Assembly: GCA_046292385.1 (NCBI GenBank)
Contig: JBKBRF010000060.1
Coordinates: 1-36,857, forward strand
Reading direction: 5' to 3'
From: Armatimonadota bacterium
GTDB lineage: Bacteria; Armatimonadota; SYMT01
Length of the DNA stretch: 36,857 bases
Shown: positions 1 to 36,857 of the stretch, one piece after another
How the letters are laid out: the number at the start of each line of letters is the position of its first letter
Position numbering within the stretch: position 1 is the stretch's first letter
The notes under the pieces: model-generated
Seen by the model: only the letters and a program-made list of their open reading frames with translations
Database searches by the model: none
Told to the model about the DNA's origin: nothing
Translations under genes and position numbers: made by a program

Positions 1-175
1 CCCGCCCTGCAGCCGGCAAAACATACTCTGCGCCCCGGGGCGCACCAACTTTACAGCGTGTGACACTTGCCACCGCTTCCCCGCCAGGGGAATCTCGCCG
101 GAGTGCTCGCGCGCCGGTAATCCTCCTGCCCTGTTGATTTCGCCGACAGTATCTGGCGAGGGGCCGTCGCTTGAG

Positions 176-359
176 CCGGGCGGAGCGGCCCGTGAATCGC
201 AGTGCCGAGCCAGCCGCAGCCGGCGAGCGCGGAACGTGACCTGCCGGGGAGCACGCCCGCAGCGCCCGCTAGCGGAGGCGAAGCCGGAGCGTGAGAGGCT
301 TGTCCCCCGAACGGGGGAGCCGCGGAGGGCCACCCACGCGGGAGGGCCGCTCCGCCCGG
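176..359. ncRNA. Structured non-coding element, copy A (candidate ncRNA or REP/MITE-like element)
   Basis: A perfect 16-bp closing stem (176-191 with 344-359) encloses internal hairpins (GCGG..CGTG/CACG..CCGC, GGCGAAGCC, TCCCCCG/CGGGGGA). Homologous to 11291-11434. Confidence 0.45.
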
Positions 360-456
360 TGAGGGCGCGGGGGGGAACCCCGGTGAGATGGAGCTCTCGC
401 CGAGAGCTCCCCCGCAGACCGCCTGCCGGGGCTGCGGAGGAGCAGTCCTCGTCTCG

Positions 457-1083
457 CTATCCGACGAAGCTCACCAGATCCAGCTCCGCCCGGGCGCATT
501 CCTCCGCGGCGGACTGGAGCTGCTGGAGGAACGGGTCCGGCTTGCCGCCGTCGCGGCCGGGCGGGCGCGCGCCGCCGCGGCGGGGGGCGGCGAGGCCTTT
601 CGCCAGCTCCTCCACCTCATCCCGCTTCACGTAGCCCCAGTAGGAGAGCGACTCCTCCACCGGGCCGGACTGCCAGAGCGTCGCGTCGCCGTTCAGCTCC
701 CGGCCGCGCACCAGCCACGCCGCCATCCGCCCGGCGGCGCTGTCGCGGGGCAGGCTCTCCACCGACTTCAACAGCCGGTCGAGCGGGAGGTCTTCGGTCA
801 GCGGATCGGCGTCGACCCACTCGTCGAACAGGTCGATCAGGAGCTGGGTCAGGTAGTAGCGCTCTTCCTCCTCCAGCCCTTCGTAGAGCTTGCCCTCCAT
901 CACCAGCCGGTGGGCGAGGCGGTCGAGCACCTCCAGCTCTTCCGGCTCCCAGTCCGAGTCTTCGTCCGCGCGCAGAAGCTCTCGCGCCTCGCGCAGGCGC
1001 TCCTCGTCCCCGGAGCCGACCCACTCCCGCAGCTCGTCCAGGTCGACGGCGTACAGGATCACATTCACGTCAACGTTCGGCAT
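457..1083 (-). CDS. Acidic hypothetical protein (possibly DUF7691-like)
   Basis: ATG at 1083 follows GAGGAAG and overlaps the ftcD 3' end. N-terminal YAVDLDELREWVGSGDE and C-terminal LDLVSF resemble a conserved hypothetical family; the family name is from recall only. Confidence 0.8.
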   Translation of the reverse strand: MPNVDVNVILYAVDLDELREWVGSGDEERLREARELLRADEDSDWEPEELEVLDRLAHRLVMEGKLYEGLEEEERYYLTQLLIDLFDEWVDADPLTEDLPLDRLLKSVESLPRDSAAGRMAAWLVRGRELNGDATLWQSGPVEESLSYWGYVKRDEVEELAKGLAAPRRGGARPPGRDGGKPDPFLQQLQSAAEECARAELDLVSFVG

Positions 1084-2029
1084 CACTTCCTCGCTCCGCG
1101 CTCCCAGCAGCGCCTTCGGCCGCGCCCTCCAGGCGGGCCGCCCAGAGGTCCAGCACCTGCGAGGGCTGCAGCTCGTGCAGCCCCAGGTAATAGCGTACCA
1201 CCTCCAGCACCTCTTCCAGTCGGATCGCGCCAATCAGCTCGCTGCCGGAGACGGGGACGCCGTAGCGCGCCGCCTCCAGCTTCACCAGCTCGAAGACGCG
1301 GTAGAGCGGCACGCCCGCGGGCTGGGTCACGTTGAGCGAGACCTGCGCGCAGCCGGGTGTCTCCAGGGAGAGGCCGAGCGCCTTCAGCCCCACCAGCCCG
1401 CCGTCCCGCTCCCGCACCCGCCGCGCGACGGCGCGGGCGATCTCCACGTCGGTGGTGCGCAGGTTCACGTTGTACGCCAGCAGCGGACCCCGCGCGCCGA
1501 CCGCCACCGCGCCGGCGGTGGGGTGGACCTGCTCCGGCCCGGCGTCCGGCGCGCGCTCCCCCAGCAGCGGCTCGCGGCGCAGCGAGTCGAACCCGGCGCC
1601 GCGCACCACCGCCAGGTTGCGCCGGTCCGGGTGGGTCGCCGCTTCTTCGTAAAAGTAGACCGGAAGCCCCAGCTCCGCGGCGAGCCGGGCGCCCGCGCGC
1701 CGGGCGAGCTGGACGCAGGTCTGCATGGAGGTGCCGCCGACCGGCACGAACGGCAGCACGTCGAGCGCCCCCATACGCGGGTGCACCCCCGCGTGCCGGG
1801 TCAGGTCGATCCGCTCCACCGCCACCCGCGCCGCGGCGAGCGCCGCCTCCTCCACCGCCTCCGGCTCTCCCAGGAAGGTGAGCACCATCCGGTGATGGTC
1901 CGGGTCCGCGGTGCGGTCGACCAGCGCCACGCCCGGGCTGCGCCGCACCGCATCCGCCAGGGCGTCCATCACCTCCGCGTCTTGCCCCTCTGAAAAGTTA
2001 GGGACGCACTGTACCAGCTCCAGCGCCAT
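1070..2029 (-). CDS. ftcD: Glutamate formiminotransferase (FT domain only, no cyclodeaminase)
   Basis: Motifs LVQCVPNFSEG, DPDHHR, IDLTRHAGVHPRMGALDVLPFVP, GAR..LLAYNVNL, QVSLN and SELIG; GGAGG SD. Confidence 0.95.
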   Translation of the reverse strand: MALELVQCVPNFSEGQDAEVMDALADAVRRSPGVALVDRTADPDHHRMVLTFLGEPEAVEEAALAAARVAVERIDLTRHAGVHPRMGALDVLPFVPVGGTSMQTCVQLARRAGARLAAELGLPVYFYEEAATHPDRRNLAVVRGAGFDSLRREPLLGERAPDAGPEQVHPTAGAVAVGARGPLLAYNVNLRTTDVEIARAVARRVRERDGGLVGLKALGLSLETPGCAQVSLNVTQPAGVPLYRVFELVKLEAARYGVPVSGSELIGAIRLEEVLEVVRYYLGLHELQPSQVLDLWAARLEGAAEGAAGSAERGSDAER

Positions 2030-2041
2030 ACCGCCTCCGCC

Positions 2042-2076
2042 CTCCTACTCCTACTCGTTCTCCTACTCTTACTCCA
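2042..2076. repeat. Hexamer tandem array (CTACTC/GAGTAG family)
   Basis: ctcctactcctactcgttctcctactcttactcc. The same family occurs at 5825-5859 and 34535-34569. Confidence 0.8.
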
Positions 2077-2135
2077 GGGTGCTCCGGGAATGCTACCGTA
2101 CCCGTCAAGCGAGCCCTGCTCCCGAAAGCGGCTTC

Positions 2136-2167
2136 TCCCACTCCCCCTTGCTCCCACTCTCCCACTC
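2136..2167. repeat. Octamer-phased repeat (CTCCCACT family)
   Basis: cccactcccccttgctcccactctcccactc, with a near-identical copy at about 5885-5915. Confidence 0.75.
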
Positions 2168-2268
2168 AGCCCAGCCCTCGGCGCTCTCGCGGCGTATCCC
2201 TCGGCGCATGCGTGGATACGACCGCTCCCGGGTATGTCTGGCCGTCGAAACGTCAGACGGGGGAGGCT

Positions 2269-2472
2269 ATGGCGATTACGGTGCACACGATCTGCGACCG
2301 CTGCGGTCGCGAGTACGAGTGGGAAGGCGTGACGGTGGGGCAGCACATTTACTGCTGCGCCGGGTGTGCGTCCGGCACGGTCTGCACCTGCCCGTTCCCC
2401 ACGGAGACGGTGGTCGTCTCCGGCGGAAACGTGGTGGTCGCCGGCGATGACGACGTGATCATCGTCAAGTAG
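2269..2472 (+). CDS. Small Cys-rich metallothionein-like protein (67 aa)
   Basis: GGGGAGG SD before ATG at 2269; pattern CDRC-x16-CCAGC-x5-CTC plus 2 His. Confidence 0.75.
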   Translation: MAITVHTICDRCGREYEWEGVTVGQHIYCCAGCASGTVCTCPFPTETVVVSGGNVVVAGDDDVIIVK

Positions 2473-2475
2473 CCG

Positions 2476-4254
2476 CTACTCCAGCTCCCGGGCCCGCAGG
2501 CCGTTCAGCCAGGCCAGGGCGTAGTAGTAGAGCCCGTACGCGGCCCCCACGTTCAGCACGGTAACGAGCGCGGCGTAACCGAGCAGGTATTCCGGCCCGC
2601 CGCCGGCGCTGCCGAACCACTCCGGGCGGGAGACCGCGAAGCCGGCGCCGATCCCTTCCGCAATCATCACGGCGACCGAGAGCGACATCGGGCTCCAGAG
2701 CTCGAACGCGCGCCGCGCCGACTTCTGCGGAGTCCCGGCGTAGCCGAGGCTCATCGCCAGGCCCGCCGAGCCGAAGGCGGCGCCGAGCACCAGGTACCAC
2801 TCGAAGCCGTAGCCCTCGAACAGGATGAAGATGCAGACGGCGGTGCCGGCGAGGACCGGCGTCATCTGCGCGATGCCGACCAGGCACGACGCGGCCCAGC
2901 GTCCGCGGAGGAGCGTTTCGGTGGGGAGCGGGCTGGTCAGGAGCTGGGTCAGCGTGTTGGCGCGCGCTTCCGTCTGCCAGAGCTGGAGCCCGCGCGCGCC
3001 GAAGGTGAGCAGCACCGGCACGAACGCCCAGCAGCCGATGAAGTAGAAGACTCCCGCCCAGACCCGCACGAAGTCTCGGAACGTAACGGTCCCGCCCAGG
3101 CCCAGCGGAATCGGGAAGAGCGGCGTGAGCGCGAAGCCGGAGAGCGCCAGGGAGCCGAGGAGCAGTCCCGTCACCTGCAGCAGAAGGAGCCGCCGCAAGC
3201 TGGCCCGGCGCAGCAGCACCCGCAGGTCCCGCACCAGCACCGGGTTATCAAACCGTCGCGCCAGCCAGCCGATCTCCACGGCGGAGCGGGGGTCCTCCCA
3301 CCGCCGCCGCTTCCGCCGCTGGCCGAGGAGCTGTGCCACTCCCAGCACCAGGGGCGGAGCCGCCACGGCGAGCCACCGGAAGGGAGGCCCGAGCCCCGAC
3401 CACGTGTAGCCGACGAAGAGATAGTACGCCGCGGCAAACGCGAGCGGGCGGCCGAACCGGCCCAGGAAGGCGGCCGCGGGGCTGGTCGGGTTGGCGGTGG
3501 CCGCGGCGCCCCCGAAGGCGGCGGCGGCGTAAGCCCCCATCAGCACCGCCAGGCCGTGGTCGGCCCGGAGCCGATCCCCGTAGAAGGCGAGGTCCTGAAA
3601 CGGGGCGAAGCCGGGCTGCACGATCGAGCGGATCCAGTTGAATCCGAGCATCGCCAGGATGCCGGCGATCCAGTAGGCCAGACCGAGGTGCCCGCTGCGG
3701 CGCATGCTCTCCAGCGGGGACGGCTTCTCCTCCCGCGAGGTGGCGCGGAGCCCCTCCGGCGGCGCCAGGAGCGTCACGCCAAACGTCAGCACCCCCATAC
3801 AGCCGGCGAGGAGATGGCCCGGCCAGAGCTGCGCCGGCAGCAGGTGCCCGCGGAGGGTGAGCGCCGCGTGGAACGGCAGCGCGGAGAGCCAGACCAGCAG
3901 CAGCCCGTACGCGGGGAAGAGCAGCTTCTGCGGGAGCCAGCGCCACGGCGAGCGGGAGATGAGCCGGACCGCCTCGAGCGTCCCCTGCCGGTGCTCCTCC
4001 ATGAAGACCCGCGCCCCCAGGATCCACCCGGCCAGGGCGCAGACCAGCCCCTCCGTAAGGCCGAGACCGAGCGTGGTTAGCACCAGCCGGACCCCCGGTT
4101 GCTCGTTCTCCATGACGAAGAGCCGCCGCTCCGCAATGAGAAACACCAGCGTCAGCAGGCAGCCCTGCAAGAGGAGCGGCAGGCCCACCGCCATGAAGGC
4201 GCGGCGTCCGGCGGAGCGCAGCTCCTTGAGAAAGAACGGGTTCTCGAGGGTCAT
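2476..4254 (-). CDS. ABC-2 type permease-like membrane protein with internal duplication
   Basis: Two repeats, [10 protein letters not shown]...[13 protein letters not shown] and [10 protein letters not shown]...[16 protein letters not shown], each followed by several TM segments. Confidence 0.8.
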
Positions 4255-4308
4255 CGGCGGGAGGGGAGAAAGAGAGAGCCGCCCTTACGTTCACGTAGAC
4301 TCTCCCAT

Positions 4309-4489
4309 TTAGCCTTCTGCCTTCTGCCTTCTGCCTTCTGCCTTCTGCCTTCTGCCTTCTGCCTTCTGCCTTCTGCCTTCTGCCTTCTGCCTTCTGCCTT
4401 TAGCCTTTAGCCTTTAGCCTTTAGCCTTTAGCCTTTAGCCTTTAGCCTTTAGCCTTCTGCCTTTAGCCTTTAGCCTTTAGCCTTCTGCC
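4309..4489. repeat. Heptamer tandem array of about 26 units (TTAGCCT/TCTGCCT)
   Basis: 1 TTAGCCT, 12 TCTGCCT, 8 TTAGCCT, 1 TCTGCCT, 3 TTAGCCT and a final TCTGCC, between divergent genes. Confidence 0.98.
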
Positions 4490-4554
4490 GGAACTTACCA
4501 CCGGAAGGTGCGTATCTCTGGGTGGCTGTCGAAAGGCGGGGAGGAGAGGCAGTG

Positions 4555-5208
4555 ATGCGCGGACGCGCCGTAAAGTGGATGCTCGGGCTGCTCCTGGTGG
4601 TGCTGCCGCTGGTCGCCGCCGGGTGGGTGGTCCGCGCGCGGATAGTGGAGGACGACATCCTCGCCCGTGCCCAGACCAGGCTGGAGGCGGGCCACTGGGG
4701 CGCCGCCAGCCAGGCGCTGCGGGAGCTTCCCCGCGGCTTTCTGCTCTCCGGCGACGCCCGCCGCCGCGCCGCCGCGCTCCACTTCCGGCTGGGCGAGGAC
4801 CGCCAGGGCCATCAGCTCCTGGTGGGACAGCGGTTCGACGACAAAGACCCGGCCGACCGGCGCGTCCGTGACCTGAGCGCCCGCTGCCAGCGCGTGAGCC
4901 TCCTGCTGAAGCAGGTCGAGGCATCCCGCGACCCGGAAGAGCGGGTCCGCCTGCTGCGCCAGGCGCGCGATGAGGTGCCGGAAGCGCCGCACCTGCTGCG
5001 CAGGCTCGCACAGGAGGAGCTGCTGGCGAGCGTCGCCACCGGCCGGGAGCAGTACCAGCAGGCCTTCGAGCAAGCGTACCTGGAGCTGCGCGCGCGGGCC
5101 CCGGAAGAGGCGGACGCGCTGAAGACGAGCGTAGGAAAGCTCCTCAACGGGGAGAAAGCGGGAGAGACTCCGCTCACCGGGGCGGAGAGCGCGCTGGAAG
5201 AACGGTAA
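4555..5208 (+). CDS. Membrane-anchored helical (TPR-like) hypothetical protein
   Basis: GAGGAG SD, an N-terminal hydrophobic helix and an Ala/Leu/Arg/Glu-rich helical body. Confidence 0.7.
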   Translation: MRGRAVKWMLGLLLVVLPLVAAGWVVRARIVEDDILARAQTRLEAGHWGAASQALRELPRGFLLSGDARRRAAALHFRLGEDRQGHQLLVGQRFDDKDPADRRVRDLSARCQRVSLLLKQVEASRDPEERVRLLRQARDEVPEAPHLLRRLAQEELLASVATGREQYQQAFEQAYLELRARAPEEADALKTSVGKLLNGEKAGETPLTGAESALEER

Positions 5209-5250
5209 ACAGGAACGGCTGCCGGGGCTGAAGCGAAGGGGGCGACTCGG

Positions 5251-5769
5251 ATGACCGCGATCCCGCACCTGCTGACCGGCGCGGCGCTCGGCGCCCGCAT
5301 TCGGAACCCGGTAGTGGCGCTGCCGCTGGCGGTGGCGAGTCACCTGCTCCTCGACGCCATCCCCCACGCGGATGCGGCGGTGCTGGCCGGCAGCCCCTCC
5401 CCGGGCTACAACGGAGCCGAGATCCTGATCTCCGTCGGGAGCTTCGTGGTCGGCCTGGGCCTCGTCCTCTGGTGCGCCTGGGGCGACCGCCGCTTCGGCT
5501 GGATCGTGCTCGCCGCGCTGGCCGGGATGCTCATCGACTTCGTCTTCGTGCTCCCCTGGTGGAAGCAGTTCTTCCAGAGTTGGCCGCCCACCGCCTGGCT
5601 GAGCCAGGTGCACCTGGCGGCCTCCACTCCCGCGCACCGATACCCCTTGCTGGTCGGAATCACGACGCAGCTCCTCGTCTCGCTCGCCGCCTTCTGGGTG
5701 CTGCGCCGCTCCACCCACCCCGCCCCCGCCAGGGTGCGGCGGCAGGGCTTGACGCGCGGGATAGAGTAG
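5251..5769 (+). CDS. Membrane protein, putative membrane-bound metal-dependent hydrolase
   Basis: PHLLTGAALG, SHLLLDAIPH and a later D/H set in TM helices, typical of YdjM-like membrane hydrolases. Confidence 0.75.
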   Translation: MTAIPHLLTGAALGARIRNPVVALPLAVASHLLLDAIPHADAAVLAGSPSPGYNGAEILISVGSFVVGLGLVLWCAWGDRRFGWIVLAALAGMLIDFVFVLPWWKQFFQSWPPTAWLSQVHLAASTPAHRYPLLVGITTQLLVSLAAFWVLRRSTHPAPARVRRQGLTRGIE

Positions 5770-5824
5770 TAACCCGGAGAAGCAGCGATCCGTCGTCGGA
5801 AACACCGCCGCTCCGAACCCTCTC

Positions 5825-5915
5825 GGAGAAGGAGAACGAGAAGGAGAAGGAGTAGGAGTGGCCGTGTACGGAGGGATCGGATCGCCCACTCCCCCTTGCA
5901 CCCACTCTCCCACTC
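5825..5915. repeat. Composite hexamer (GAGAAG/GAGTAG) plus octamer (CTCCCACT) intergenic repeat
   Basis: ggagaaggagaacgagaaggagaaggagtaggagt followed by cccactcccccttgcacccactctcccactc. Confidence 0.8.
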
Positions 5916-5936
5916 TGTCTGCCGCTAATCCTCATC

Positions 5937-6878
5937 ATGCGCCGCGTCGTCAGCGTCTCCCTCGGCTCCCCCTCGCGCAACTGGCGCGCCGACCTTTCCG
6001 ACCTCGGGGTGCCGCTGGTGCTGGAGCGCCGGGGCGTGGGGCTCGACTACGGCGCCTACACCGCCGCGCTGCGGGAGCTGGATGCCGACCCGGAGGTGGC
6101 GGCGATCGGCCTCGGCGGGATCAACCGGTACCTCTTCTCCGGCGAGCGGAAGTACCCCCTCCGCAAGGCGGAGGAGATGGCGTCGGTGGTCCGCTCCAAG
6201 CCGGTCTGCGACGGCGCCGGGCTGAAGCAGTACTGGGAGCCGTTCGTCGTCCGTACCGTCCACGAGACCGGGCAGGTGCCGCTCGCCGGACGGCACGCGC
6301 TGATGGTCTGCGTCGTCGACCGCTGGGGCATGGCGGAGGCGCTGCGCGATGTGGGCGCCGACCTGGTGATGGGCGACATGATGTTCGCCCTCGGCCTGCC
6401 GATCCCGCTCCGCGGCTGGGCGACCGTCCGCTCCCTCACCCGCGGCCTGCTCCCGATCCTCACTCAGCGGGTCCCGTTCGAGTGGCTCTATCCCACCGGC
6501 GAGAGCCGCGACGTGCCGAAGTACCGCCGCTGGTACGACTGGGCCGACGTCCTCGCCGGCGACTGGAAGTTCATCGCCAGGCACATGCCCGCCGAGCCCG
6601 GCTCCCTCGCCGGGAAGGCGATCCTCACGAACACCACCACTCCGAAGGACGTGGAGGCGCTGCGCCTGCGCGGCGCCGCGGTGCTCGTCACCACCACCCC
6701 CAGCCTCCACGGTCGCTCCTTCGGGACCAACGTGGTGGAGGCCGCCGCCGCGGCACTCTCCGGCAAGTCGCCGGAGGAGATGGTCTTCGCGGACTACCTC
6801 GCCGTCTTCCAGCGCCTCGGCTGGGACCGGCCCCGCGTCCAGCGCCTCCAGGAGCCAGCAACGGCAACCGTCCGCTAG
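5937..6878 (+). CDS. Conserved protein of the family often auto-annotated 'quinate 5-dehydrogenase' (function unverified)
   Basis: MRRVVSVSLGS, AIGLGG, PVCDGAGLK, VDRWGMA, GDMMFALG, WLYPTGE, GKAILTNTTT, GRSFGTNVVEA. Confidence 0.8.
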   Translation: MRRVVSVSLGSPSRNWRADLSDLGVPLVLERRGVGLDYGAYTAALRELDADPEVAAIGLGGINRYLFSGERKYPLRKAEEMASVVRSKPVCDGAGLKQYWEPFVVRTVHETGQVPLAGRHALMVCVVDRWGMAEALRDVGADLVMGDMMFALGLPIPLRGWATVRSLTRGLLPILTQRVPFEWLYPTGESRDVPKYRRWYDWADVLAGDWKFIARHMPAEPGSLAGKAILTNTTTPKDVEALRLRGAAVLVTTTPSLHGRSFGTNVVEAAAAALSGKSPEEMVFADYLAVFQRLGWDRPRVQRLQEPATATVR

Positions 6879-6940
6879 GTGCCGCATCCGCCAACTGCGG
6901 CCGCGACAGCGGCCCTCCGGGAGTGCCGGTGCCGGAGCCG

Positions 6941-7057
6941 AACGCGCTGGTGCAGGTGGTCGCCAGGGGTTGCGCCGGCGACGTGTTGGCGCCGGAGCTG
7001 ATCCGAGACGGCAAGAAGATGACCATAAAGGCAACCCCGGTGCCGAAACCGAACTGA
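6941..7057 (+). pseudogene. Probable remnant of a C-terminal PDZ domain
   Basis: NALVQVVARGCAGDVLAPELIRDGKKMTIKATPVPKPN* matches the GD-x-L-x-L-x-RDGK end of PDZ domains; there is no usable start or N-terminal part. Confidence 0.45.
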
Positions 7058-7138
7058 TCCAGGCGATCGCTCGTCTGAGCGCCCCGGGGCGGCCTCCCCC
7101 GGGGGCCGCTGCCGTGGGTACGGGGTGAGGAGGATTGA

Positions 7139-7852
7139 ATGCGAAGTCGACGAACGTGGTGCGCCGGTCTGCTGGCCGCGGGCGCGCTGGCCGGCGTGGC
7201 CGCGGGAGCGGTGCGGGCCCAGGAGCCGGAGGTGCGGCGGGAAGTGCGGACGGTGACGATCCGGGTCCCGAATTTCGAAGCGGATACCTCCCAGGTGCCG
7301 GAGCTGCAGCCCTGGGGCCGCGCCGCCGAAGCGCTCTGCCAGGCGTGGTACGGCCGCATCGTGGCGGCTCTCGACAGCGACGAGACGAAGCGCCCGGCGC
7401 CGGAGACGGTCAAGATCGTCTTCGAGAAAGAGATGGACGGAGTCGCCTACGCCAACCGCAACGAGATCCACATCGCGGCGCACTGGGTCCGGCGGAACCC
7501 GAACGACTTCGGCATGGTCGCGCACGAGCTGACCCACATCGTGCAGCGCTATCCGCGGAACCGCAACGCCGGCTGGCTGGTGGAAGGCGTGGCGGACTAC
7601 GTGCGGCTGCAGCACTTCGAGCCGGCGCTCGCGCGGCCGAAGATCGATTTCACCAGGGCGAAGCACACCGACGCCTACAAGACGACCGCCCAGTTCCTGA
7701 TCTACCTGGAAGAGAAGTACGGAAGCAAGGTGGTGCCGAGCCTGCACGCCGCGCTCCAGGAAGGCCGCTACTCGGACCAGCTGTTCCAGGAGCTGACCGG
7801 CAAAGAGGTCGGCACGCTCTGGCAGGAGTTCGCGGAAGCGTCCGCCGCCTGA
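7139..7852 (+). CDS. Secreted BSP (basic secretory protein) family zinc peptidase-like protein
   Basis: GAGGAGG SD, signal peptide, GVAY, HELTHIVQ (HExxH) and WLVEGVADYVR. Confidence 0.9.
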   Translation: MRSRRTWCAGLLAAGALAGVAAGAVRAQEPEVRREVRTVTIRVPNFEADTSQVPELQPWGRAAEALCQAWYGRIVAALDSDETKRPAPETVKIVFEKEMDGVAYANRNEIHIAAHWVRRNPNDFGMVAHELTHIVQRYPRNRNAGWLVEGVADYVRLQHFEPALARPKIDFTRAKHTDAYKTTAQFLIYLEEKYGSKVVPSLHAALQEGRYSDQLFQELTGKEVGTLWQEFAEASAA

Positions 7853-7864
7853 CGCGCCACCTCG

Positions 7865-7924
7865 GGTAGGCAGGTTACAGGCCGCGGAGAGCTCAACCTG
7901 CAACCTGCCTACCTGGAACCTGAA
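7865..7924. repeat. Inverted heptamer arms (AACCTGC family) between convergent genes
   Basis: ggtaggcaggtt pairs with aacctgcctacc; tandem aacctgc aacctgc ctacctgg aacctga. Confidence 0.7.
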
Positions 7925-7929
7925 ACAGA

Positions 7930-8589
7930 CTAAGGAACGACCGCCAGCTCTTCCCGCGCGGAGTGGACGCCGGCCACGGTGGTCGTCACCTGCAGCGCGA
8001 GCAGCCGCTCCTCCTCGGAGTGCACCTGCCCCACCAGCACCACGTGCCCCGTCTCTTCGACCAGCGGTCGAATCTGACGGTGCTTGAGGTCCGGATGCCG
8101 CCGCAGCGCGTCCGCGACCGCATTCGCCAGGTCTGCCTGGTCCGGTCCGTACGGGTTCTCGATCCGGGTGGTGTCGTAGCTGTTGGAGATGCCGGTCACT
8201 CCCTCCGCCGCCACTTCGGCGCGGCTTAGCTCACCCAGGCTCCGCGCGGAGCCGGTGAGCACCGCCTGCCCCCGGATCGCGTCCGCTCCCAGGCGGCGCG
8301 GATCGATCTCCGCCTCGGCGATCTCCTCGTCCAGGTCCTGGGAAAGCTGCTGGTCCGGCACCTGGTGCGGGATCTCCACCGCCACCGCCTCGATGACGCT
8401 GCGCACGCCCGGTATCTGCGACGCCGCCTCCAGCGCCGCCATCTTGTCCGCCAGCGTCCGCACAGCGCCGCGGATGGTAACGACCCCCTTATCCGCCGTC
8501 ACCCGCAGGTCGTTCAGGTTCACGCCGGGCAGCTGGCCGATTGCCCGCTCCACCTGAAAGACCAGGTGGCCATCCGTGATCTCCATCAT
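7930..8589 (-). CDS. BON domain protein (three BON repeats, no signal peptide)
   Basis: GVVTIRG..A..IPGVRSV, GQAVLTG..EGVTGI and GHVVLVG..VAGVHS; GAGGAGG SD. Confidence 0.88.
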   Translation of the reverse strand: MMEITDGHLVFQVERAIGQLPGVNLNDLRVTADKGVVTIRGAVRTLADKMAALEAASQIPGVRSVIEAVAVEIPHQVPDQQLSQDLDEEIAEAEIDPRRLGADAIRGQAVLTGSARSLGELSRAEVAAEGVTGISNSYDTTRIENPYGPDQADLANAVADALRRHPDLKHRQIRPLVEETGHVVLVGQVHSEEERLLALQVTTTVAGVHSAREELAVVP

Positions 8590-8737
8590 CACCCCTCCTC
8601 GGCCCACCTTCCACGGCGGGTCTGAGAGGCGAATACCCGTCCCGAGAGCGGAGCGAAACGGATCGCTTTGCGAGGGTCTAGGGTCCAGGAGATAGGGTTT
8701 AGGACTGGCGAGAGGCCGGTGCCCCTGCCACTACAGG

Positions 8738-8852
8738 GGCGGAGTGCGGAGGAACGGATCCACCGTCCAAGAAGGCTCGGAATTCCGCACTCCGTCCTCA
8801 TCCCTTTGCCCTTAAAACATCCCCCTGATCTCCAATTCATCCCCCTATCCCC
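8738..8852. repeat. Dispersed composite element, copy 1 (GGAGTGCG..CGCACTCC hairpin plus CATCCC heptamers)
   Basis: Homologous to 18536-18650 and directly downstream of the histidine kinase stop. Confidence 0.8.
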
Positions 8853-8856
8853 TTTC

Positions 8857-11037
8857 TTACACCTGCTCCGGTTCGGACCGGCTTTGCATCAGGACCGTCA
8901 CCTCCACGCGGGTGCCGCCTTCTTCGCGGGGGGACCAGGTAACGCGGGCGTCGATCAGGTCGGCGCGGTAGCGCATGTTCTCCAGGCCGCGGCCGGCGCC
9001 GCGGGCGGTCTCGGGATCGAAGCCGCGGCCGTCGTCCCAGAGGCAGAGGGTGAGGCGGCCGGGCTCGCTGCGGACCTCCAGCCCGGCCTTGCGGGCGCCG
9101 GAGTGCTTGAGCACGTTGTTGATCGCTTCCTGGCAGATCCGGAAGAGGCCGAGACTCTGCTCCGGCGAAAGCTCCGGCTCCTCGCCGGTGCGGCGGACCG
9201 ACACGGTGAGCGGCGGCTCCTGGCGGGCGGCGCCGCGGCGGAGGTAACTCTCCAGGGCGGCGGAGAGGCCGAGCATGTCGAGCGCGGAGGGACGGAGCGC
9301 CTCCATCACCTCGCGGACGCTGTCCATCGACTCCCGGATCTCCCCCTCCAGCCGCGCCAGGTCGGGCGCCTGTCCGTTCGACCGCTCCCGGAGCCGCTCC
9401 ACGTCGGCCGCCATCTGGCGGAGACCGGGCAGGACCTGGTCGTGCAGGTCCGCCGCCAGCCGCCGCCGCTCTTCCTCCGCGCCGGAGAGGACGCCGGAGG
9501 TCCGCGCCGCCAGCTCCACCCGCTGCCGTGCCAGCAGCTCCCCGTTCAGCCGCGCGTTTTCCAACGCGACCGCCGCCTGCACCGCCGCCGCTTCCAGCAG
9601 CTCCCGCTCCTCCGGGCTGTACGCTTCGCCGCTCTCCTTCGGCCCGAGGCGCAGGTAACCGAGCACCGCCTCCCCCCGCCGCACCGGAATGGGGAGCGCC
9701 CCGTCCGCGGCGGGTAGGTCCGGCAGCGCGAACGTCAGCCACTCCGGTCGCAGCGCCTGCCGTACGCCCGCTTCCAGCCGCTGCATCACCCCCGCCGCCT
9801 CGCGCTCGCCGCCCAGGTCCTGCGCCAGCCGGATCAGCGCCTGGCGCCGCGCCTCCACGTCGCGGAAGAAGCGGCGGTCGACGTTCCGCAGCACCTCCAT
9901 CCGCTTCGCGAGCAGCAGCGCCACCAGGAACATCCAGAACAGGTAGAACACCACTTCGCCGGGACGCACCGGCTGGTGCGTCACCGAAAGCTGACCCATC
10001 CGCCACACCAGCACGAAGCCGGGAATCAGGAACAGCGTGCCGAGCGTCCACCGGGCCAGCAGGTAGCGCAGCGTGTGCCGCGCCACCAGCCGCACCTCCA
10101 GCGCCCGCAGCCGGAAGACCAGGTGCGCCATCGCTCCGCTGAAGAGCAGCGCCGGCAGCAGGTTCACTGGGACGAACTGGTCCGAGATCACCCAGAGACG
10201 CTGGAAGATCCCGGCGATCACCGCCGCCACGGTCGCCCCGGCCGCCACCGTGAGCGTGCGGATCACCGGCCGCGCCTCCGGGGCGGCGCGCCGCCACCGG
10301 AGCAGCACCTGCCCCAGGCCGTAGAGCGCGTAGCCGAGCGCCATCGTGTCGAAGAGGGCCGCCGCGGCGTCGATCCGCCCCTCGTCCCACATCCCGGAGC
10401 CGATCAGGCCGAAGAAGCCGAACGGGAGGTAGAGCCGGAAGAAGATCCGCCACCGGCCCGGCGCGCGGCGGCCTTCCGCCTCCGGATCGGGGAAGATGGT
10501 GAAGAAGTGCGCGAGCAGCACCAGCGCGAAGAGCCGTGGCTCCCGCGGGAAGCCGAAGACCGGCGCCACCATCAGGACCAGCCCCAGCAGCAGCGCGCGG
10601 CCGTCGCCCGGGCGCTGCCAGATCAGCGCCAGCCCCAGCGCGATCAGCGCCACGTTTAGCAGCCCCGCCGCTCCCCACGCCAGCCGCACCGGCCAGGCCG
10701 GGGGCACCGGCTGCACCTGGAGCCAGACCCCCGCGCCGTTCCGGCGCAGCTCCACCTCTCCGCTGCGGGGGATGCCGTTCTTCCACCCCAGCGGCGACCG
10801 CTCCCCCGCGGGCGCCGCCGCCGGGGCGATCACCTCGCTCTTGACCCACCGGTCACCGGTCCGCGCTCCCGCCCGCGCCAGCGGCGAGCCGTCCGCCACC
10901 TGCAGCACCCGCTCCTCCCCGGAGACCACGCCGCCCGGCGGGACCGACGTCACGCCGATGGTCGGCCCGAAGAGGGCTCCCAGCAGGAGCAGGATGCCCA
11001 CGAAGAGCAGCGGATACTGGTACCAGGGGCGGCGCAT
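8857..11037 (-). CDS. Membrane sensor histidine kinase (PDZ-like loop, multiple TM, GAF-like, HisKA_3, HATPase)
   Basis: EEERRRLAADLHD H-box, QEAINNVLKH N-box, DDGRGF and GRGLENM G-boxes; GSPLARAGARTGD PDZ-like motif. Confidence 0.93.
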   Translation of the reverse strand: MRRPWYQYPLLFVGILLLLGALFGPTIGVTSVPPGGVVSGEERVLQVADGSPLARAGARTGDRWVKSEVIAPAAAPAGERSPLGWKNGIPRSGEVELRRNGAGVWLQVQPVPPAWPVRLAWGAAGLLNVALIALGLALIWQRPGDGRALLLGLVLMVAPVFGFPREPRLFALVLLAHFFTIFPDPEAEGRRAPGRWRIFFRLYLPFGFFGLIGSGMWDEGRIDAAAALFDTMALGYALYGLGQVLLRWRRAAPEARPVIRTLTVAAGATVAAVIAGIFQRLWVISDQFVPVNLLPALLFSGAMAHLVFRLRALEVRLVARHTLRYLLARWTLGTLFLIPGFVLVWRMGQLSVTHQPVRPGEVVFYLFWMFLVALLLAKRMEVLRNVDRRFFRDVEARRQALIRLAQDLGGEREAAGVMQRLEAGVRQALRPEWLTFALPDLPAADGALPIPVRRGEAVLGYLRLGPKESGEAYSPEERELLEAAAVQAAVALENARLNGELLARQRVELAARTSGVLSGAEEERRRLAADLHDQVLPGLRQMAADVERLRERSNGQAPDLARLEGEIRESMDSVREVMEALRPSALDMLGLSAALESYLRRGAARQEPPLTVSVRRTGEEPELSPEQSLGLFRICQEAINNVLKHSGARKAGLEVRSEPGRLTLCLWDDGRGFDPETARGAGRGLENMRYRADLIDARVTWSPREEGGTRVEVTVLMQSRSEPEQV

Positions 11038-11111
11038 GCATCCCTTCTAGCCGGAATCTCACTCCCGCGCCCGGGGCGATGGCACCATTTTCCACGGCGG
11101 GAGTGCGAGGT

Positions 11112-11275
11112 CTCACCGCAGAAAGCGCCGAGAACGCGGAGAGGACCACCCGTTGAGGGGGCTCGGCTTGAGCGCTGCCGCTCGCCACAAGTAGCGGGCC
11201 TTGGCGCTGCAGCAACCAGTCCGAGGCGCCCGAAGGGTGCCACTTGTGACCGCCCCTGGGCGTCAGGGGCGGTCG
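11112..11275. repeat. Nonamer-phased arm plus REP-like hairpin
   Basis: ctcaccgcagaaagcgccgagaacgcggagag is the same family as 30910-31222; gaccgcccctg/caggggcggtc forms an 11-bp stem. Confidence 0.65.
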
Positions 11276-11290
11276 CTCGACGGCGACCGA

Positions 11291-11434
11291 TTCAGCCCGT
11301 GAACACAGCCGGGGTGGAGATCACGGCGGTGGCGCGGGAAGAGCATTTCGGAGTGCACTTCCGCAGCGGCCTGCTAACGGAGCGCAGCGGAGTGTGAAAA
11401 GGCCGCGGAGGGCCACCGACGCGGGAGGGCTGAA
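11291..11434. ncRNA. Structured non-coding element, copy B
   Basis: 8-bp closing stem TTCAGCCC/GGGCTGAA, with internal stems CGGTGGC/GCCACCG, GCGG.AAG/CTTCCGC and GCGGCCT/AGGCCGC. Homologous to 176-359. Confidence 0.45.
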
Positions 11435-11495
11435 GCGGGCGACTAGAGCGCGGGGTCGGGCCCGCGGTGCCAAGGCTGCTCACTGAAAGAAAAGA

Positions 11496-12326
11496 TCAGC
11501 CCTCAAAGAACCGCACCGCCGACCCCTCCGGCAGCACCCCGTTCCGCACGGCGAGCTCGCAGAACCGCTCTATCCCGGCGCGCTCGGCCTCGCCGAGGTC
11601 GTACTGGATCGATTCGTAGAGATACTGCCGGGCCACCGAGAGGGGCAGGCCCAGATCCTCGGCGCCGCGGGCGGCAAGCTGGTCGCGGCGCCGGAGGCCC
11701 CACTGCTTCGCGCGGGTGAGCGCCGCGGTGAGCCGGGCGAGATCCCGGTCGGCCGGGGCGGCCCAGATGGCGTAGGTAAACGGGAGCCCGGTCAGCTCCT
11801 GCCACTCCCGGCCGAGATCGAGACTCTCCCGGACCAGCCCCGGCCAGCGGCCGGACGCCAGCGCCTGGTTCGCCGCGAGCGCCGGGTTGCCGATGAGGAG
11901 CGCCGCGTCCGCCTGCTCCAGCATCGCCGGAAGGTCGGGCGGCAGCGTCCGGAACTCGGGCGTCATCCGCCACCGCTCCGCAAAGAGCACTCGCGTCAGC
12001 GCCACCGCGCTGCGGCTGCTGGCGTCGAGCGCCACCGTCTTCACCTGGGAAAGCGGGCGGCGCAGGTAGAGCTGGATGCTCTGGACCTCTCCCCGGGAGA
12101 TCACGCCCATCCCGGGCAGGATGCGCAGCTCCGGGTGCGGCAGCACCGCGCCGGTGGAGACGAGGGCGGCATCGAGCCCACCCTGGAGCAGCGCGCCGAT
12201 CAGCCGGGAAGGAATCAGCGCGGAGAGCTCCACGGCGTCTCCCACCAGCAGCGCGGCTTCTCGCTCGCGCAGGGCCGCCGCCAGCGGGTCGGCATTCAGA
12301 TACGGCACGGTGCCCAACCGCCACAT
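11496..12326 (-). CDS. mqnA: Chorismate dehydratase (futalosine menaquinone pathway)
   Basis: RLGTVPYLNADPL, GEVQSI, VALDASSRSAVAL, DAALLIGNPAL, DLGREWQELTGLPFTYAIW. Confidence 0.92.
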   Translation of the reverse strand: MWRLGTVPYLNADPLAAALREREAALLVGDAVELSALIPSRLIGALLQGGLDAALVSTGAVLPHPELRILPGMGVISRGEVQSIQLYLRRPLSQVKTVALDASSRSAVALTRVLFAERWRMTPEFRTLPPDLPAMLEQADAALLIGNPALAANQALASGRWPGLVRESLDLGREWQELTGLPFTYAIWAAPADRDLARLTAALTRAKQWGLRRRDQLAARGAEDLGLPLSVARQYLYESIQYDLGEAERAGIERFCELAVRNGVLPEGSAVRFFEG

Positions 12327-12455
12327 AGCGCTAGATGGAAGAAGAGAGAAGAAAGAAAAGAGAAGAAAGAACTGAGGGCGAGGGGGCTCGCCGCTGAGTA
12401 GTTCTATCCCCGAAGCCTCTGTTTCGCGGCGCGGGGGCCGGGGGTGGGGCGGTAC

Positions 12456-12499
12456 AAAGGAAAACCCCTGCCGGGCATCTTCCCCATACCGGCAGGGGT
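12456..12499 (-). terminator. Probable intrinsic terminator of the DUF1549-DUF1501-PPC operon
   Basis: 11-bp stem ACCCCTGCCGG/CCGGCAGGGGT followed by TTTCCTTT on the minus strand. Confidence 0.65.
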
Positions 12500-12579
12500 C
12501 CGTCTGTCCCTCATGCGCGGCGTCCGCTCGCCGCACTCGTATCATCCCCGGGCGGGCCGGAGGCTAAACACGCGCCTAA

Positions 12580-14253
12580 TCATTTTTTCTCCGCGGGCGG
12601 CTCCGGCGCCGGAACCAGCGCCACCAGCGCCGCAGTCGGTCCTGGGCCCAGGGGGTTGCCGCCGTCTCCGGTGATCAGCCAGACGACCGGCACCGTCCGC
12701 GGCGATTCCCCGGCGGTGACCGCCACGAGCCGCACGACCGCGAAGCCGGGCTGCGCGTCGGCCGCGGCCTGCAGCACCAGCTTCGCGGAGCTCTGTCCGG
12801 TGCGGTCCTTCAGAGCCGCCACCTTCACCGGCTCCGCGGTGACGCCGGCCGGCAGCCCCTCCAGCCGCAGCTCGATCTCGTCCGGCTGGAACGACTGGTA
12901 CAGGGTGACGTTCCACTCGAGCTTCTCGCCCGGCTTGACCACCGCGGTCGGGGTCGCGGCGACGGCGCTCAGCTCCGGAGTCATCGGGGTGATGAGGAGC
13001 CGGTAGTAGGAGCTGGGGCCGCTGCGGGAGCTGCCGGCGAGGTCCTCCACCTGGAGCACGTACTCGCCGTCGGCGGGGACGGTCCACTCCGCCCGCGGGT
13101 CGCGGCTGCGCGGCGCGTCGTCCTCCTGCAGCACCACCCTGCCCTCTGCATTCCGCAAGATGAAGCGCGGATCGGCGAGGGAATCGACTTCCCGCCCGAC
13201 CACCTGGATCCGCAGCCGGTCCTTCGCTTTCACCGTGAAGCGGAAGAAGTCGGCGTCGCCCCGCCGGCCGAAGGTGCCGTGTGCGGCGCCCGGCACGGAG
13301 ATCGGCTGGGCCTGCTCGGCGCGGTCGTTCGGCTCCGCCTCCGGCAGCTCCGGACCCTCGGTCATCGCCAGCGGCAGCCGGTTCGGCGCGTCGAAGGCGG
13401 TGAGGTGGAACGTCTCTCCCTCGGAGGGCACCGGGGCCTCGAGCTCGGCGGTGCCGGGGCCCGGCTTCCCCAGGTTCCAGCCGTGGACCGTCAGCCGGGC
13501 GGAGCTGCCCCGCGCCACGCTCGGCGGCAGCGCGAAGTCGAGCCAGGGACCGGTAGTAAGATGGAGCCGGTAGTGGCAGTGGGCATCTACGTTGCCCATG
13601 TTGCTCGTCACGTCGGTGAGCTGCAGGGTGTATTCGCCGTCCGCCGGAGCGGTGCAGGTAAAGACGGGATCCAGGCGGCGGTTGTCGACGTCGACGCCGA
13701 CCGTCCGCCCCTGGGCGTCCCGCACCGTGAGCGCCAGGTAGATCGGACCGGCGAGCAGCCGCGACTCGCTGGCGACCACCAGGCAGTCGCCCTTCTTCAG
13801 GGCGACGCGGTAGTTGTCGGTATCGCCCGGCTTCGGGATCGCGCCGTTCAGCGTGAGCGGAAGCTGCTCCAGCCGCTGCGCCTTGTCGAGCGAGTCGTTC
13901 GGCTCCGCTTCCAGCACCTCCGGCAGCACGCCGACCATAAACGGCCGCGGCTCCGTGGCGGCCGCCGGCCCGACCAGCCGAAGCTGCCGCACACCCGGCT
14001 CCGCTTCGGGGGCGATCTCCACCTTACCCACGCCCTTGACGAACGGCCCGAGCGGCTTCAGGCCCTCGCCGTCGACCACCAGCGTCGCCGACTCCACCTT
14101 CTCCATCGCGGGAAAGGTAAGCGTCACCGTGGCGCCGCGCTGGCCGCCCGGCGGAAAGAGCCGGTCCGCCGCGCTCTGCGCGCCCGCCGGCGCCGCCAGG
14201 AGCAGCGGCAGGATGACGGCGGCGCGAAGGGCCAGAGACTTCAGCATCGACAT
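12580..14253 (-). CDS. Secreted PPC (pre-peptidase C-terminal) domain protein, Planctomycete-type
   Basis: Signal peptide, LFPPGGQRG, two EAEPND motifs, two PADGEY-L-[LV]-x-D segments and YRL ends. Exact start uncertain (14247-14265). Confidence 0.88.
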   Translation of the reverse strand: MSMLKSLALRAAVILPLLLAAPAGAQSAADRLFPPGGQRGATVTLTFPAMEKVESATLVVDGEGLKPLGPFVKGVGKVEIAPEAEPGVRQLRLVGPAAATEPRPFMVGVLPEVLEAEPNDSLDKAQRLEQLPLTLNGAIPKPGDTDNYRVALKKGDCLVVASESRLLAGPIYLALTVRDAQGRTVGVDVDNRRLDPVFTCTAPADGEYTLQLTDVTSNMGNVDAHCHYRLHLTTGPWLDFALPPSVARGSSARLTVHGWNLGKPGPGTAELEAPVPSEGETFHLTAFDAPNRLPLAMTEGPELPEAEPNDRAEQAQPISVPGAAHGTFGRRGDADFFRFTVKAKDRLRIQVVGREVDSLADPRFILRNAEGRVVLQEDDAPRSRDPRAEWTVPADGEYVLQVEDLAGSSRSGPSSYYRLLITPMTPELSAVAATPTAVVKPGEKLEWNVTLYQSFQPDEIELRLEGLPAGVTAEPVKVAALKDRTGQSSAKLVLQAAADAQPGFAVVRLVAVTAGESPRTVPVVWLITGDGGNPLGPGPTAALVALVPAPEPPAEKK

Positions 14254-14373
14254 GGGTGGATACAACCAGAACCGATCTACCGGCCGCCGCTCGAGTCACG
14301 GCGAGGCATTGAAATACCTCGCTGGCCGGCCTGCGGCCAAGCGTCCTCCGGACGCCGGAACCAGGCCCTGCTG

Positions 14374-14428
14374 AGTCCCCGGAGGGGGACTTCGTGCTGT
14401 GGTTGCCGCGGTTTCAACCGCCCGGGGG
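14374..14428. repeat. REP-like double hairpin
   Basis: AGTCCCC-GGAG-GGGGACT and GCGGTT-TC-AACCGC. Confidence 0.6.
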
Positions 14429-14453
14429 CTTTGACTTTACTCGTCAGGAAACC

Positions 14454-15785: not shown

Positions 15786-15799
15786 CGCCGTCCTCCCGA

Positions 15800-36606: not shown

Positions 36607-36744
36607 TTGGAGTGCGGAAGCTTGCTTCCGCTTTGAGGGGCCTTCCGTACGCGGTAGCTTCTCCCGAGCGAGAGCAAGCTCTCACAAGCAGCGGCGGTCT
36701 GGTGGCGGGGTCGGCGGCGAAAGCGGCAGCAAGCTACCGCACTT
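36607..36744. repeat. REP-like inverted pair
   Basis: ttggagtgcggaagcttgcttccgcttt ... aaagcggcagcaagctaccgcact; each arm is itself a hairpin. Confidence 0.75.
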
Positions 36745-36857
36745 GTATGTTAGCTCCAGGTGGGAAGGAAGAAGAAGGTCACCCGCACTTGCCGCCCTTC
36801 GGGGACGGACGTTTGGAGAAGACCTCTTCTTCCCTCTCACCGCCGATGAGGAATCCC

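Follow-up and report, generated by a model that had tools for sequence, protein, structure and literature searches.

Results

The DNA analysed here (the window) is a stretch of 36,857 nucleotides (nt), contig JBKBRF010000060.1 of an Armatimonadota bacterium (assembly GCA_046292385.1), in which two look-alike stretches, copies A and B, lie in the same orientation, each no more than about 100 nt from where a minus-strand gene stops. A sequence-only reading of the window had placed the two stretches at 176-385 and 11291-11470 and proposed for them either a structure-selected multi-copy RNA or a non-autonomous mobile element that folds as single-stranded DNA (ssDNA). Both are present where it placed them, with 75% mean column identity in a pairwise alignment, a last block alike at 28 of 29 positions and, in copy A, a long closing helix that is present in the minimum-energy fold and an extra hairpin that is private to this copy among 86 aligned copies. 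What proved too narrow were the limits and the number, because conservation passes beyond the earlier limits to give a module of about 290 nt (range 270-300 nt; Table 1), and the genome holds not two copies but 158 by nhmmer or 138 by covariance model. With slightly more confidence than doubt, we take both stretches to be members of a gene-less, non-autonomous mobile repeat of one lineage whose propagation needs its fold.

A multi-copy module in three genera of one family

The genome of the window (G000) comprises 7.04 Mb in 91 contigs with 68.9% G+C. A DNA search of it scored the best 40 of 351 first-look candidates, blastn found 141 places, an nhmmer profile that took in the conserved flanks gave the 158 matches (134 of them at least 200 nt long), and a covariance model of the 184-nt core found the 138; identity among the roughly 140 copies runs from 70 to 88%. 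Contig C8 (159 kb) alone has 22 module matches, or one per 7 kb, compared with one per about 45 kb genome-wide. The comparison with Rfam by cmscan that the sequence-only reading had suggested matched no known family: the whole window gave no match to Rfam 15 at gathering thresholds, and permissive scans of both regions gave best E-values of 0.24-0.76 that lie far under the gathering scores and off the core.

The suggested covariance-model search of this and related genomes was more productive. Copy B had no convincing blastn match in 40 relatives, and it was the covariance model alone, not blastn, that reached other genera of the same family, namely G005 (13-15 matches, best E 1e-16) and G006 (8 matches, best E 2.4e-11), each a genus of its own; four further family members gave no module with this model. 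Among 151 genomes sampled across the phylum, the covariance model detected the module in these three, all of one family. G005 also contains a type I-E CRISPR-Cas locus with two arrays (L137, G005:C3:822000-841999, 8654-16847), and each array has two tandem modules at its distal end pointing in the direction of the cas genes. A general link to CRISPR was rejected, since the two arrays of G000 are without a module within 3 kb.

Public collections were probed with exact patterns, which diverged copies would escape: a probe with the most conserved block returned one stretch in genome_contigs and six in metagenome_contigs, none of which is the element (no nhmmer match at E <= 10; the genome_contigs stretch reads as coding DNA), and two probes of viral_contigs returned zero and three stretches, none genuine. 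Soil and root metagenome runs contain 20-46% of the words of the window stretch. The literature on REPIN/RAYT, PATE/TnpB and IS110 bridge RNA was searched, with the literature on the phylum outside its scope, and gave no description of the element; with so narrow a scope, no claim is made that it is unpublished.

The fold is supported by covariation across copies

The module is predicted to fold into two 5' hairpins, a domain of about 190 nt closed by a 15-bp long-range helix, and a 3' hairpin. Folded alone, copy A reaches -132.9 kcal/mol (z -3.8, 0 of 200 shuffles as good) and copy B is unexceptional (z -1.05, 32 of 200 shuffles as good), so that the case for structure rests on covariation across copies and not on single-sequence energy. 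Alignment A2, made of 62 B-clade copies with copy B as its first row, has an RNAalifold consensus of 48 pairs, 22 of which show double-sided changes. Of its 2975 cells, 97.6% are paired, compared with 86.4% in shuffles and 35-47% with slid partners, while cells changed on both sides number 298 against 91.9 +/- 6.2 in shuffles; none of five such measures was reached by any of 500 shuffles. Kinship alone can let related sequences beat shuffles without any structure. However, pairing collapses in the slid controls, and an 11-bp stretch of the long-range helix is swapped wholesale between the unrelated sequences GGCCGATTCAG/CTGAATCGGCC and CCGGGAGGCAG/CTGCCTCCCGG, which together indicate a signal beyond what relatedness explains. 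Selection for structure, as the sequence-only reading had proposed, is thus borne out by these counts.

The support extends over separate parts of the fold. The closing helix 5 (columns 145-159 with 297-312) has 15 pairs, nine of them changed on both sides, and is 97.0% paired; hairpin 2 (columns 94-99/121-126) is 98.7% paired with double changes in three of six pairs. Hairpin 1 of copy B has a homologue, in a short or a long form, in all rows of A2, and it lies outside the RNAalifold consensus and is excluded from the pair counts. The columns of the most conserved block are nearly invariant across alignments of 62 and 86 copies. A CAGAAAC-like motif stands at fixed distances upstream of 19 of 67 B copies, compared with a background of 7.5%, and occurs in the 3' tail as well.

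The fold also distinguishes the two strands. G-T cells outnumber A-C cells by 229 to 8 and make up 7.7% of paired cells, and the consensus energy is -79.0 for the sense and -53.0 for the antisense strand, an asymmetry that arises in part from predicting the structure on the sense strand. Columns 138/318 form a conserved wobble (U-G in 60 of 62 copies). The same asymmetry holds within each of the two clades described below on its own sense strand (179 versus 15 for A, 145 versus 3 for B), indicating that the arms of paired modules fold on opposite strands with their 3' ends outward. No T-run follows the 3' hairpin. Guide-like pairing of the hairpin feet with CACAG/ACAG was inspected by eye and found unconvincing.

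Two module types are paired head-to-head

The 134 long copies form a tree with two clades, A and B, and each window copy belongs to the clade that bears its letter. The 31 close pairs are all divergent (-,+), with 3-85 nt between matches save for one overlap and one 202-nt gap; 27 consist of A plus B and four contain a truncated arm that could not be typed, with no A+A and no B+B pair among them. Full-length neighbours within 300 nt are likewise divergent in 27 of 27 cases, with none in another layout. The fuller form of the element is therefore two-armed, with A and B head-to-head and the 3' end of each module outward, and this layout is obligatory in the paired form. Solo modules comprise 40 of type B, 32 of type A and four untyped. 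The modules of G005 are mostly head-to-head pairs too and lie beside unrelated genes; the paired architecture is therefore old.

Sharp termini, deletion derivatives and insertions in a prophage

When 17 A+B' composites were aligned with 900-1500 nt of flank, conservation began and ended abruptly over about 800 nt. A genome-wide search for these termini identified 21 copies that have both ends and whose flanks are unrelated, a two-armed subfamily with the sharp ends 5'-CACAG...(T)ACAG-3'. The sizes fall into classes of about 401 nt (five copies), 417, 549, 613, 642, 790-804 (ten copies), 822 and 889 nt. In the 401-nt form the B module is gone, with the A module and both termini still present, and since this form occurs at five separate loci, it spread after the deletion. 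In the 21 two-ended copies the tips are direct and not inverted, and at none of the offsets do the flanks show a variable duplication of 2-9 nt; the best "repeat" in the flanks is the element's own ACAG at both ends (10 of 21 copies), and the right flank begins with A in 15 of 21. Tracts built of tandem units of about 10 nt, of the CACAGAGGGA type, adjoin many insertion sites, and several copies lie within such tracts, with the element exactly after a CACAG of the tract (for example, G000:C8:56465, C10:72538 and C30:17486).

A prophage on contig C40 (G000:C40:17000-40000, loci L119 and L120), recognised by Pfam matches to terminase, portal, capsid, tail completion protein and Rad52, holds eight modules of mixed clades in its intergenic gaps, at about 14 times the average density of the genome and all eight on the strand opposite the late genes. 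Eight of 80 related viral loci fetched, with terminase identity of about 44%-60%, were tested, and none of the eight has a module at E <= 0.01; the gap after the terminase gene is 72 nt in one relative versus 355 nt in the C40 prophage.

Across the genome no orientation relative to genes prevails. Over 137 copies the four layouts with respect to neighbouring genes count 36/34/31/29, on gene calls from a crude caller of our own. This evenness disposes of the remark that both window copies lie near the stop of a minus-strand gene in the same orientation, which is a coincidence, and also of the reading of the module as a cis-acting element of its neighbours.

Pairs are mostly kept between neighbouring copies and often broken by private changes

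In 51 pairs of nearest-neighbour copies (mean distance 12.5%), the rate of difference is 7.6% in paired columns and 17.4% in unpaired ones, and 281 of 373 paired-column differences leave the pair intact in both copies. Of the single changes that are private to one copy and fall in conserved paired columns, 24 preserve the pair and 20 disrupt it. An inserted repeat of another kind interrupts copy A as well as one or more other copies. These patterns suggest selection on the lineages that multiply, with single insertions decaying slowly.

Search for a partner enzyme

The sequence-only reading had suggested an association with HUH/RAYT, IS200/IS605 or reverse-transcriptase genes, and none was found adjoining the element. 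G000 encodes five Y1 (HUH) genes, IS200-like or RAYT-like (Table 1). A short-word blastn of their flanks against the 797-nt element gave chance matches of 10-16 nt only. Each Y1 gene has its own short dispersed repeat family, pointing to several independent REP-like systems in this genome. Y1 matches number 5, 9 and 6 in the three carriers, and Y1 genes are present in six of the seven family genomes.

For the TnpB domains, PF07282 and PF01385 gave no match in G000, and PF07282 gave none in all seven family genomes; IscB was covered solely via the Rfam HEARO model, with no match and no protein-model search made. Reverse transcriptase (PF00078) gave no match in G000, which is 98.45% complete by markers, with a small doubt left by the draft assembly. 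An IS110 recombinase is present in G000 and not next to any module, and PF01548, the IS110 recombinase, had no match in G005, which is 97% complete and carries 13-15 modules. The module and the ends of the IS110 element itself are dissimilar (best E 0.13). No transposase flanked by the element was found, and a search for an autonomous copy found no contig on which more than 1.5 kb separates a left from a right terminus.

The window copies and the repeats nested in them

Copy B of the window is an intact solo module. Copy A, of type A, was later broken by an insertion: its hairpin 2 contains a fragment of a different repeat, T, and this insertion accounts for the missing 5' third of copy A, which is thus probably a damaged copy; its tail probably extends to about 445, judging from other A-type tails. 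Repeat T is 238 nt long with perfect 19-nt inverted termini (a full copy is at G000:C35:70148-70385) and is represented by about 148 blast pieces in G000. It lies at the same relative place in the module copy at C1:333131, so that at least two copies have an interrupted hairpin 2, and at about 17 loci T adjoins fragments of the module, as though it targeted this hairpin.

At one fixed site inside T sits in turn an IS110-family element of 1299 bp (G000:C6:73995-75293; also contig C91), whose ends are found at many contig ends, including both ends of the window's contig. The element is probably multi-copy and assembly-breaking, and its presence at the contig end explains why the contig stops where the window does. 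The module, the nested T and the IS110 element together explain break points of the draft genome. The two genes adjoining the copies are unrelated to each other and to the repeat.

Table 1. Coordinates of the module copies, their parts, neighbouring features and the Y1 genes (window positions unless a contig of G000 is given)
Feature	Position	Strand	Basis or remark
Copy B, intact solo module, B clade	11216..11501	+	nhmmer, profile positions 35-323, 243.8 bits
Copy B, covariance-model core	11274-11455	+	159.2 bits, E 1.2e-26
Copy B, hairpin 1, GGCGCCC-GAA-GGGTGCC	11225..11241	+	G-N-A three-base loop, one G-T pair
Copy B, hairpin 2, CCGCCCCTGG-GCGT-CAGGGGCGG	11250..11272	+	consensus helices 1-2
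Copy B, long-range closing helix, 5' strand	11283..11298	+	consensus helix 5
Copy B, long-range closing helix, 3' strand	11427..11441	+	consensus helix 5
Most conserved block of the family, GCCGCGGAGGGCC-N6-GCGGGAGGGC	11402..11430	+	28/29 identical to 319-347
Copy A, A-clade module, 5'-truncated	157..386	+	nhmmer, profile positions 82-292, 84.3 bits; probable tail beyond
Copy A, covariance-model core	168-372	+	97.9 bits
Copy A, extra hairpin, TCCCCCG-AA-CGGGGGA	303..318	+	insertion in 1 of 86 aligned copies
Fragment of repeat T inside copy A hairpin 2	66..153	-	blastn, 85% identity, T positions 2-89
Gene of a DUF7691 protein, adjoining copy A	457-1233	-	
Gene of an MqnA-like menaquinone (futalosine pathway) enzyme, adjoining copy B	11496-12545	-	
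End of IS110-family element	36728..36857	-	blastn, 94.6% over 130 nt, upstream of the C6 IS110-family transposase gene
Y1 gene	G000:C51:25920-26261		
Y1 gene	G000:C22:55627-55965		
Y1 gene	G000:C40:62344-62622		
Y1 gene	G000:C83:9901-10122		
Y1 gene	G000:C5:163128-163307		

Discussion

How the element may spread

Of what the sequence-only reading had proposed, the parts concerning structure, multiple copies and a mobile-like nature hold, the last of these through the sharp ends, the multiplied deletion derivatives and the prophage insertions without counterpart in the related phage loci tested. A gene-less mobile repeat that depends on its fold would be moved as DNA, in trans, by an enzyme encoded elsewhere, and would land beside a short CACAG-like motif without target duplication, in the manner of IS200/IS605. 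The fold would be what the mobilising or retention machinery recognises, so that lineages that propagate would have to keep it while each of their insertions is gradually lost to decay. As the folded form, RNA would seem to be somewhat favoured over ssDNA, because the arms fold on opposite strands, G-U pairs are conserved in position and the multi-helix junction is RNA-like.

Several points weigh against this interpretation. The movement is read from the anatomy of the element, and no enzyme is tied to it: all five Y1 genes are flanked by other repeat families, none of which matches the element, and no copy with a gene between its two arms was found, although an autonomous copy could be missing from a draft of 91 contigs, many of which end in repeats. 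The ends of solo modules are fuzzy, and CACAG could belong either to the element or to its target. The bias toward the C-rich strand is weak and depends on the span over which it is taken (50 of 80 solos with 10 kb, 46 of 80 with 50 kb). Arms folding on opposite strands do not fit the classic IS200/IS605 intermediate, in which one strand contains both folded ends, and this opposite-strand folding is the main observation that no classical model explains. Finally, ordinary miniature elements are without 270 nt of conserved internal structure, so that the fold may have a job of its own.

Alternatives

The alternative we consider best placed, if at well under even chances, is that the modules are free-standing structured noncoding RNA genes, transcribed from their 5' ends and thus divergently outward in pairs, whose RNA has a role itself, such as scaffold or guide of an unknown protein, with spread being secondary. 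Strong covariation, a strand-specific fold that each paired arm adopts on its own outward strand, G-U pairs fixed in position (such as columns 138/318), highly conserved unpaired blocks and retention of the fold in three genera are all consistent with RNA genes, as is an orientation independent of neighbouring genes, which is expected for units with their own promoter. By contrast, neither a promoter nor a terminator was identified, paired modules can be separated by as little as 3-13 nt (in nhmmer coordinates), and some 140 copies at their level of identity are unlike known RNA genes. Broken copies are tolerated and private changes are about as likely to disrupt a pair as to preserve it, while the sharp DNA termini and multiplied deletion derivatives indicate DNA mobility.

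We find it rather unlikely that the element acts purely as ssDNA, that is, as a REPIN-like or PATE-like HUH element cut and rejoined by a Y1 enzyme of the genome, its fold forming where replication forks or rolling-circle replication leave DNA exposed. Three-base loops of the form C-GNA-G, a very stable kind in DNA, cap many of the hairpins, and the tips without inversion, the missing target duplication and the similar short motifs of left flank and right end would suit such an enzyme, as would the presence of Y1 genes in all three carrier genomes. The single orientation of the eight prophage copies and the weak orientation trend with GC skew point the same way, with those eight copies not being independent in a replication-direction count; as an explanation, replication-strand bias itself was set aside as a weak signal only. 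However, the element flanks none of the Y1 genes, the ends of known REP and IS200/IS605 elements require short hairpins only and no 190-nt domain closed over a long range, the two arms fold on opposite strands, and the share of G-T among paired cells would weaken DNA helices.

A gene-less IS200/IS605 derivative with an omega-RNA, or an IS110 type with the bridge RNA only, served in trans by TnpB/IscB or a recombinase, is much less probable still and is largely refuted for known protein families. A structured scaffold of about 200-300 nt with its 3' end at the element boundary is omega-RNA-like, elements with omega-RNAs are described among PATEs in the text of the preprint (PMC10055086), and IS110-family elements are present and active-looking in G000. 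By contrast, TnpB domains are absent from the searches of G000 and the seven family genomes, the HEARO/IscB RNA and the other Rfam families are without match, the 97%-complete carrier G005 gave no IS110 recombinase, and the ends of the IS110 element are unlike the module. A cis-acting role as 3' untranslated region stabiliser, terminator or leader of neighbouring genes, suggested by both window copies lying within about 100 nt of a minus-strand gene stop, is hardly credible and is refuted by the even layouts, with the neighbouring genes being unrelated and no T-run following the 3' hairpin.

Significance

Gene-less mobile repeats normally conserve their tips only, whereas the module conserves a strand-specific structure of about 270 nt through compensating changes, across some 140 copies and three genera, in an element made of two different, homologous modules set back to back. 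Opposite-strand folds, 3' ends at exact boundaries, a fold retained in three genera and known partners that were not found would also permit a bolder and rather improbable reading, namely that the modules are outward-facing scaffold RNAs that read into the flanks and serve an undescribed protein other than TnpB, IscB, IS110 recombinase or reverse transcriptase. If true, gene-less elements would have a new, RNA-dependent means of moving or of defending their position in the genome. For the mobile repeat that we favour, one possible outcome is a new kind of recognition module for a known transposase type, and an alternative is the RNA half of a mobility or retention system in bacteria without matches to TnpB, IscB or reverse transcriptase. 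The family is in any case a ready-made, deeply sampled alignment for structure work.

Comparison with known systems

HEARO and raiA are large orphan structured bacterial RNAs found by comparative genomics, present in single or few copies. The module resembles them in its 200-300 nt, its multi-helix junctions, its strong covariation and its lack of a known function; it differs in having about 140 copies, DNA-level termini and no Rfam match at gathering thresholds, the comparison having been made via Rfam alone. Integron attC sites are simple hairpins of 57-141 nt that follow cassettes in one array next to the integrase. Like them, the module would be a site of the recombination type, defined by a strand-specific single-strand fold and not by sequence, and the uniform orientation of attC sites in arrays recalls that of the prophage copies. 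By contrast, module copies are dispersed, three times longer and often head-to-head.

An arrangement with both inverted termini and target duplication, as in classical DDE-type miniature inverted-repeat transposable elements, is not what the two-ended copies show, and a retroelement or an element like a short interspersed nuclear element is not matched by any reverse transcriptase detected in the genome. IS110-family elements use bridge RNAs (Durrant et al. 2024, PMC11208160), and as that report describes them, the module shares a structured RNA of about 180 nt in the transposon end, the lack of inverted termini and a short core at both junctions. It differs in that no DEDD recombinase gene lies next to the module and none was detected in carrier G005, and in being unlike G000's own IS110 ends.

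REPINs are linked to RAYT transposases (Bertels and Rainey 2011, PMC3116915, PMC3337134). On the account given there, the likeness lies in two inverted units that form one non-autonomous element, with many singlets, in intergenic positions, in one lineage and in a genome with Y1 genes. The units here are multi-helix structures of about 300 nt, whereas those of a REPIN are palindromes of 20-40 nt, and the arms here are always of different types. In place of short inverted REPs and a single-copy RAYT flanked by the same REPs, no RAYT flanked by the element was found, and each of the five Y1 genes of G000 has its own, different repeats.

PATEs are gene-less IS200/IS605 derivatives, some with omega-RNAs, and in IS200/IS605 elements the left-flank motif (TAM) resembles the right-end motif (TEM) (Meers et al. 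2023 preprint, PMC10055086). As far as the preprint's account of PATEs extends, the element differs in its two homologous modules, one per end and on opposite strands, in a fold that matches no Rfam family, and in its partners: neither a Y1 TnpA with the same ends nor TnpB or IscB to serve an omega-RNA was found in the seven related genomes (TnpB by PF07282, IscB via HEARO). By the same account, both are gene-less and multi-copy, both are mobilised in trans (as proposed here), and both are without terminal inverted repeats or target-site duplication, as the 21 two-ended copies show. The motif of the left junction (CACAG, which could be target or element) resembles that of the right end, (T)ACAG, and may thereby follow the TAM/TEM logic, which insertion right after a CACAG in the decamer tracts would fit. 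In both, a structured module faces the element boundary with its 3' end.

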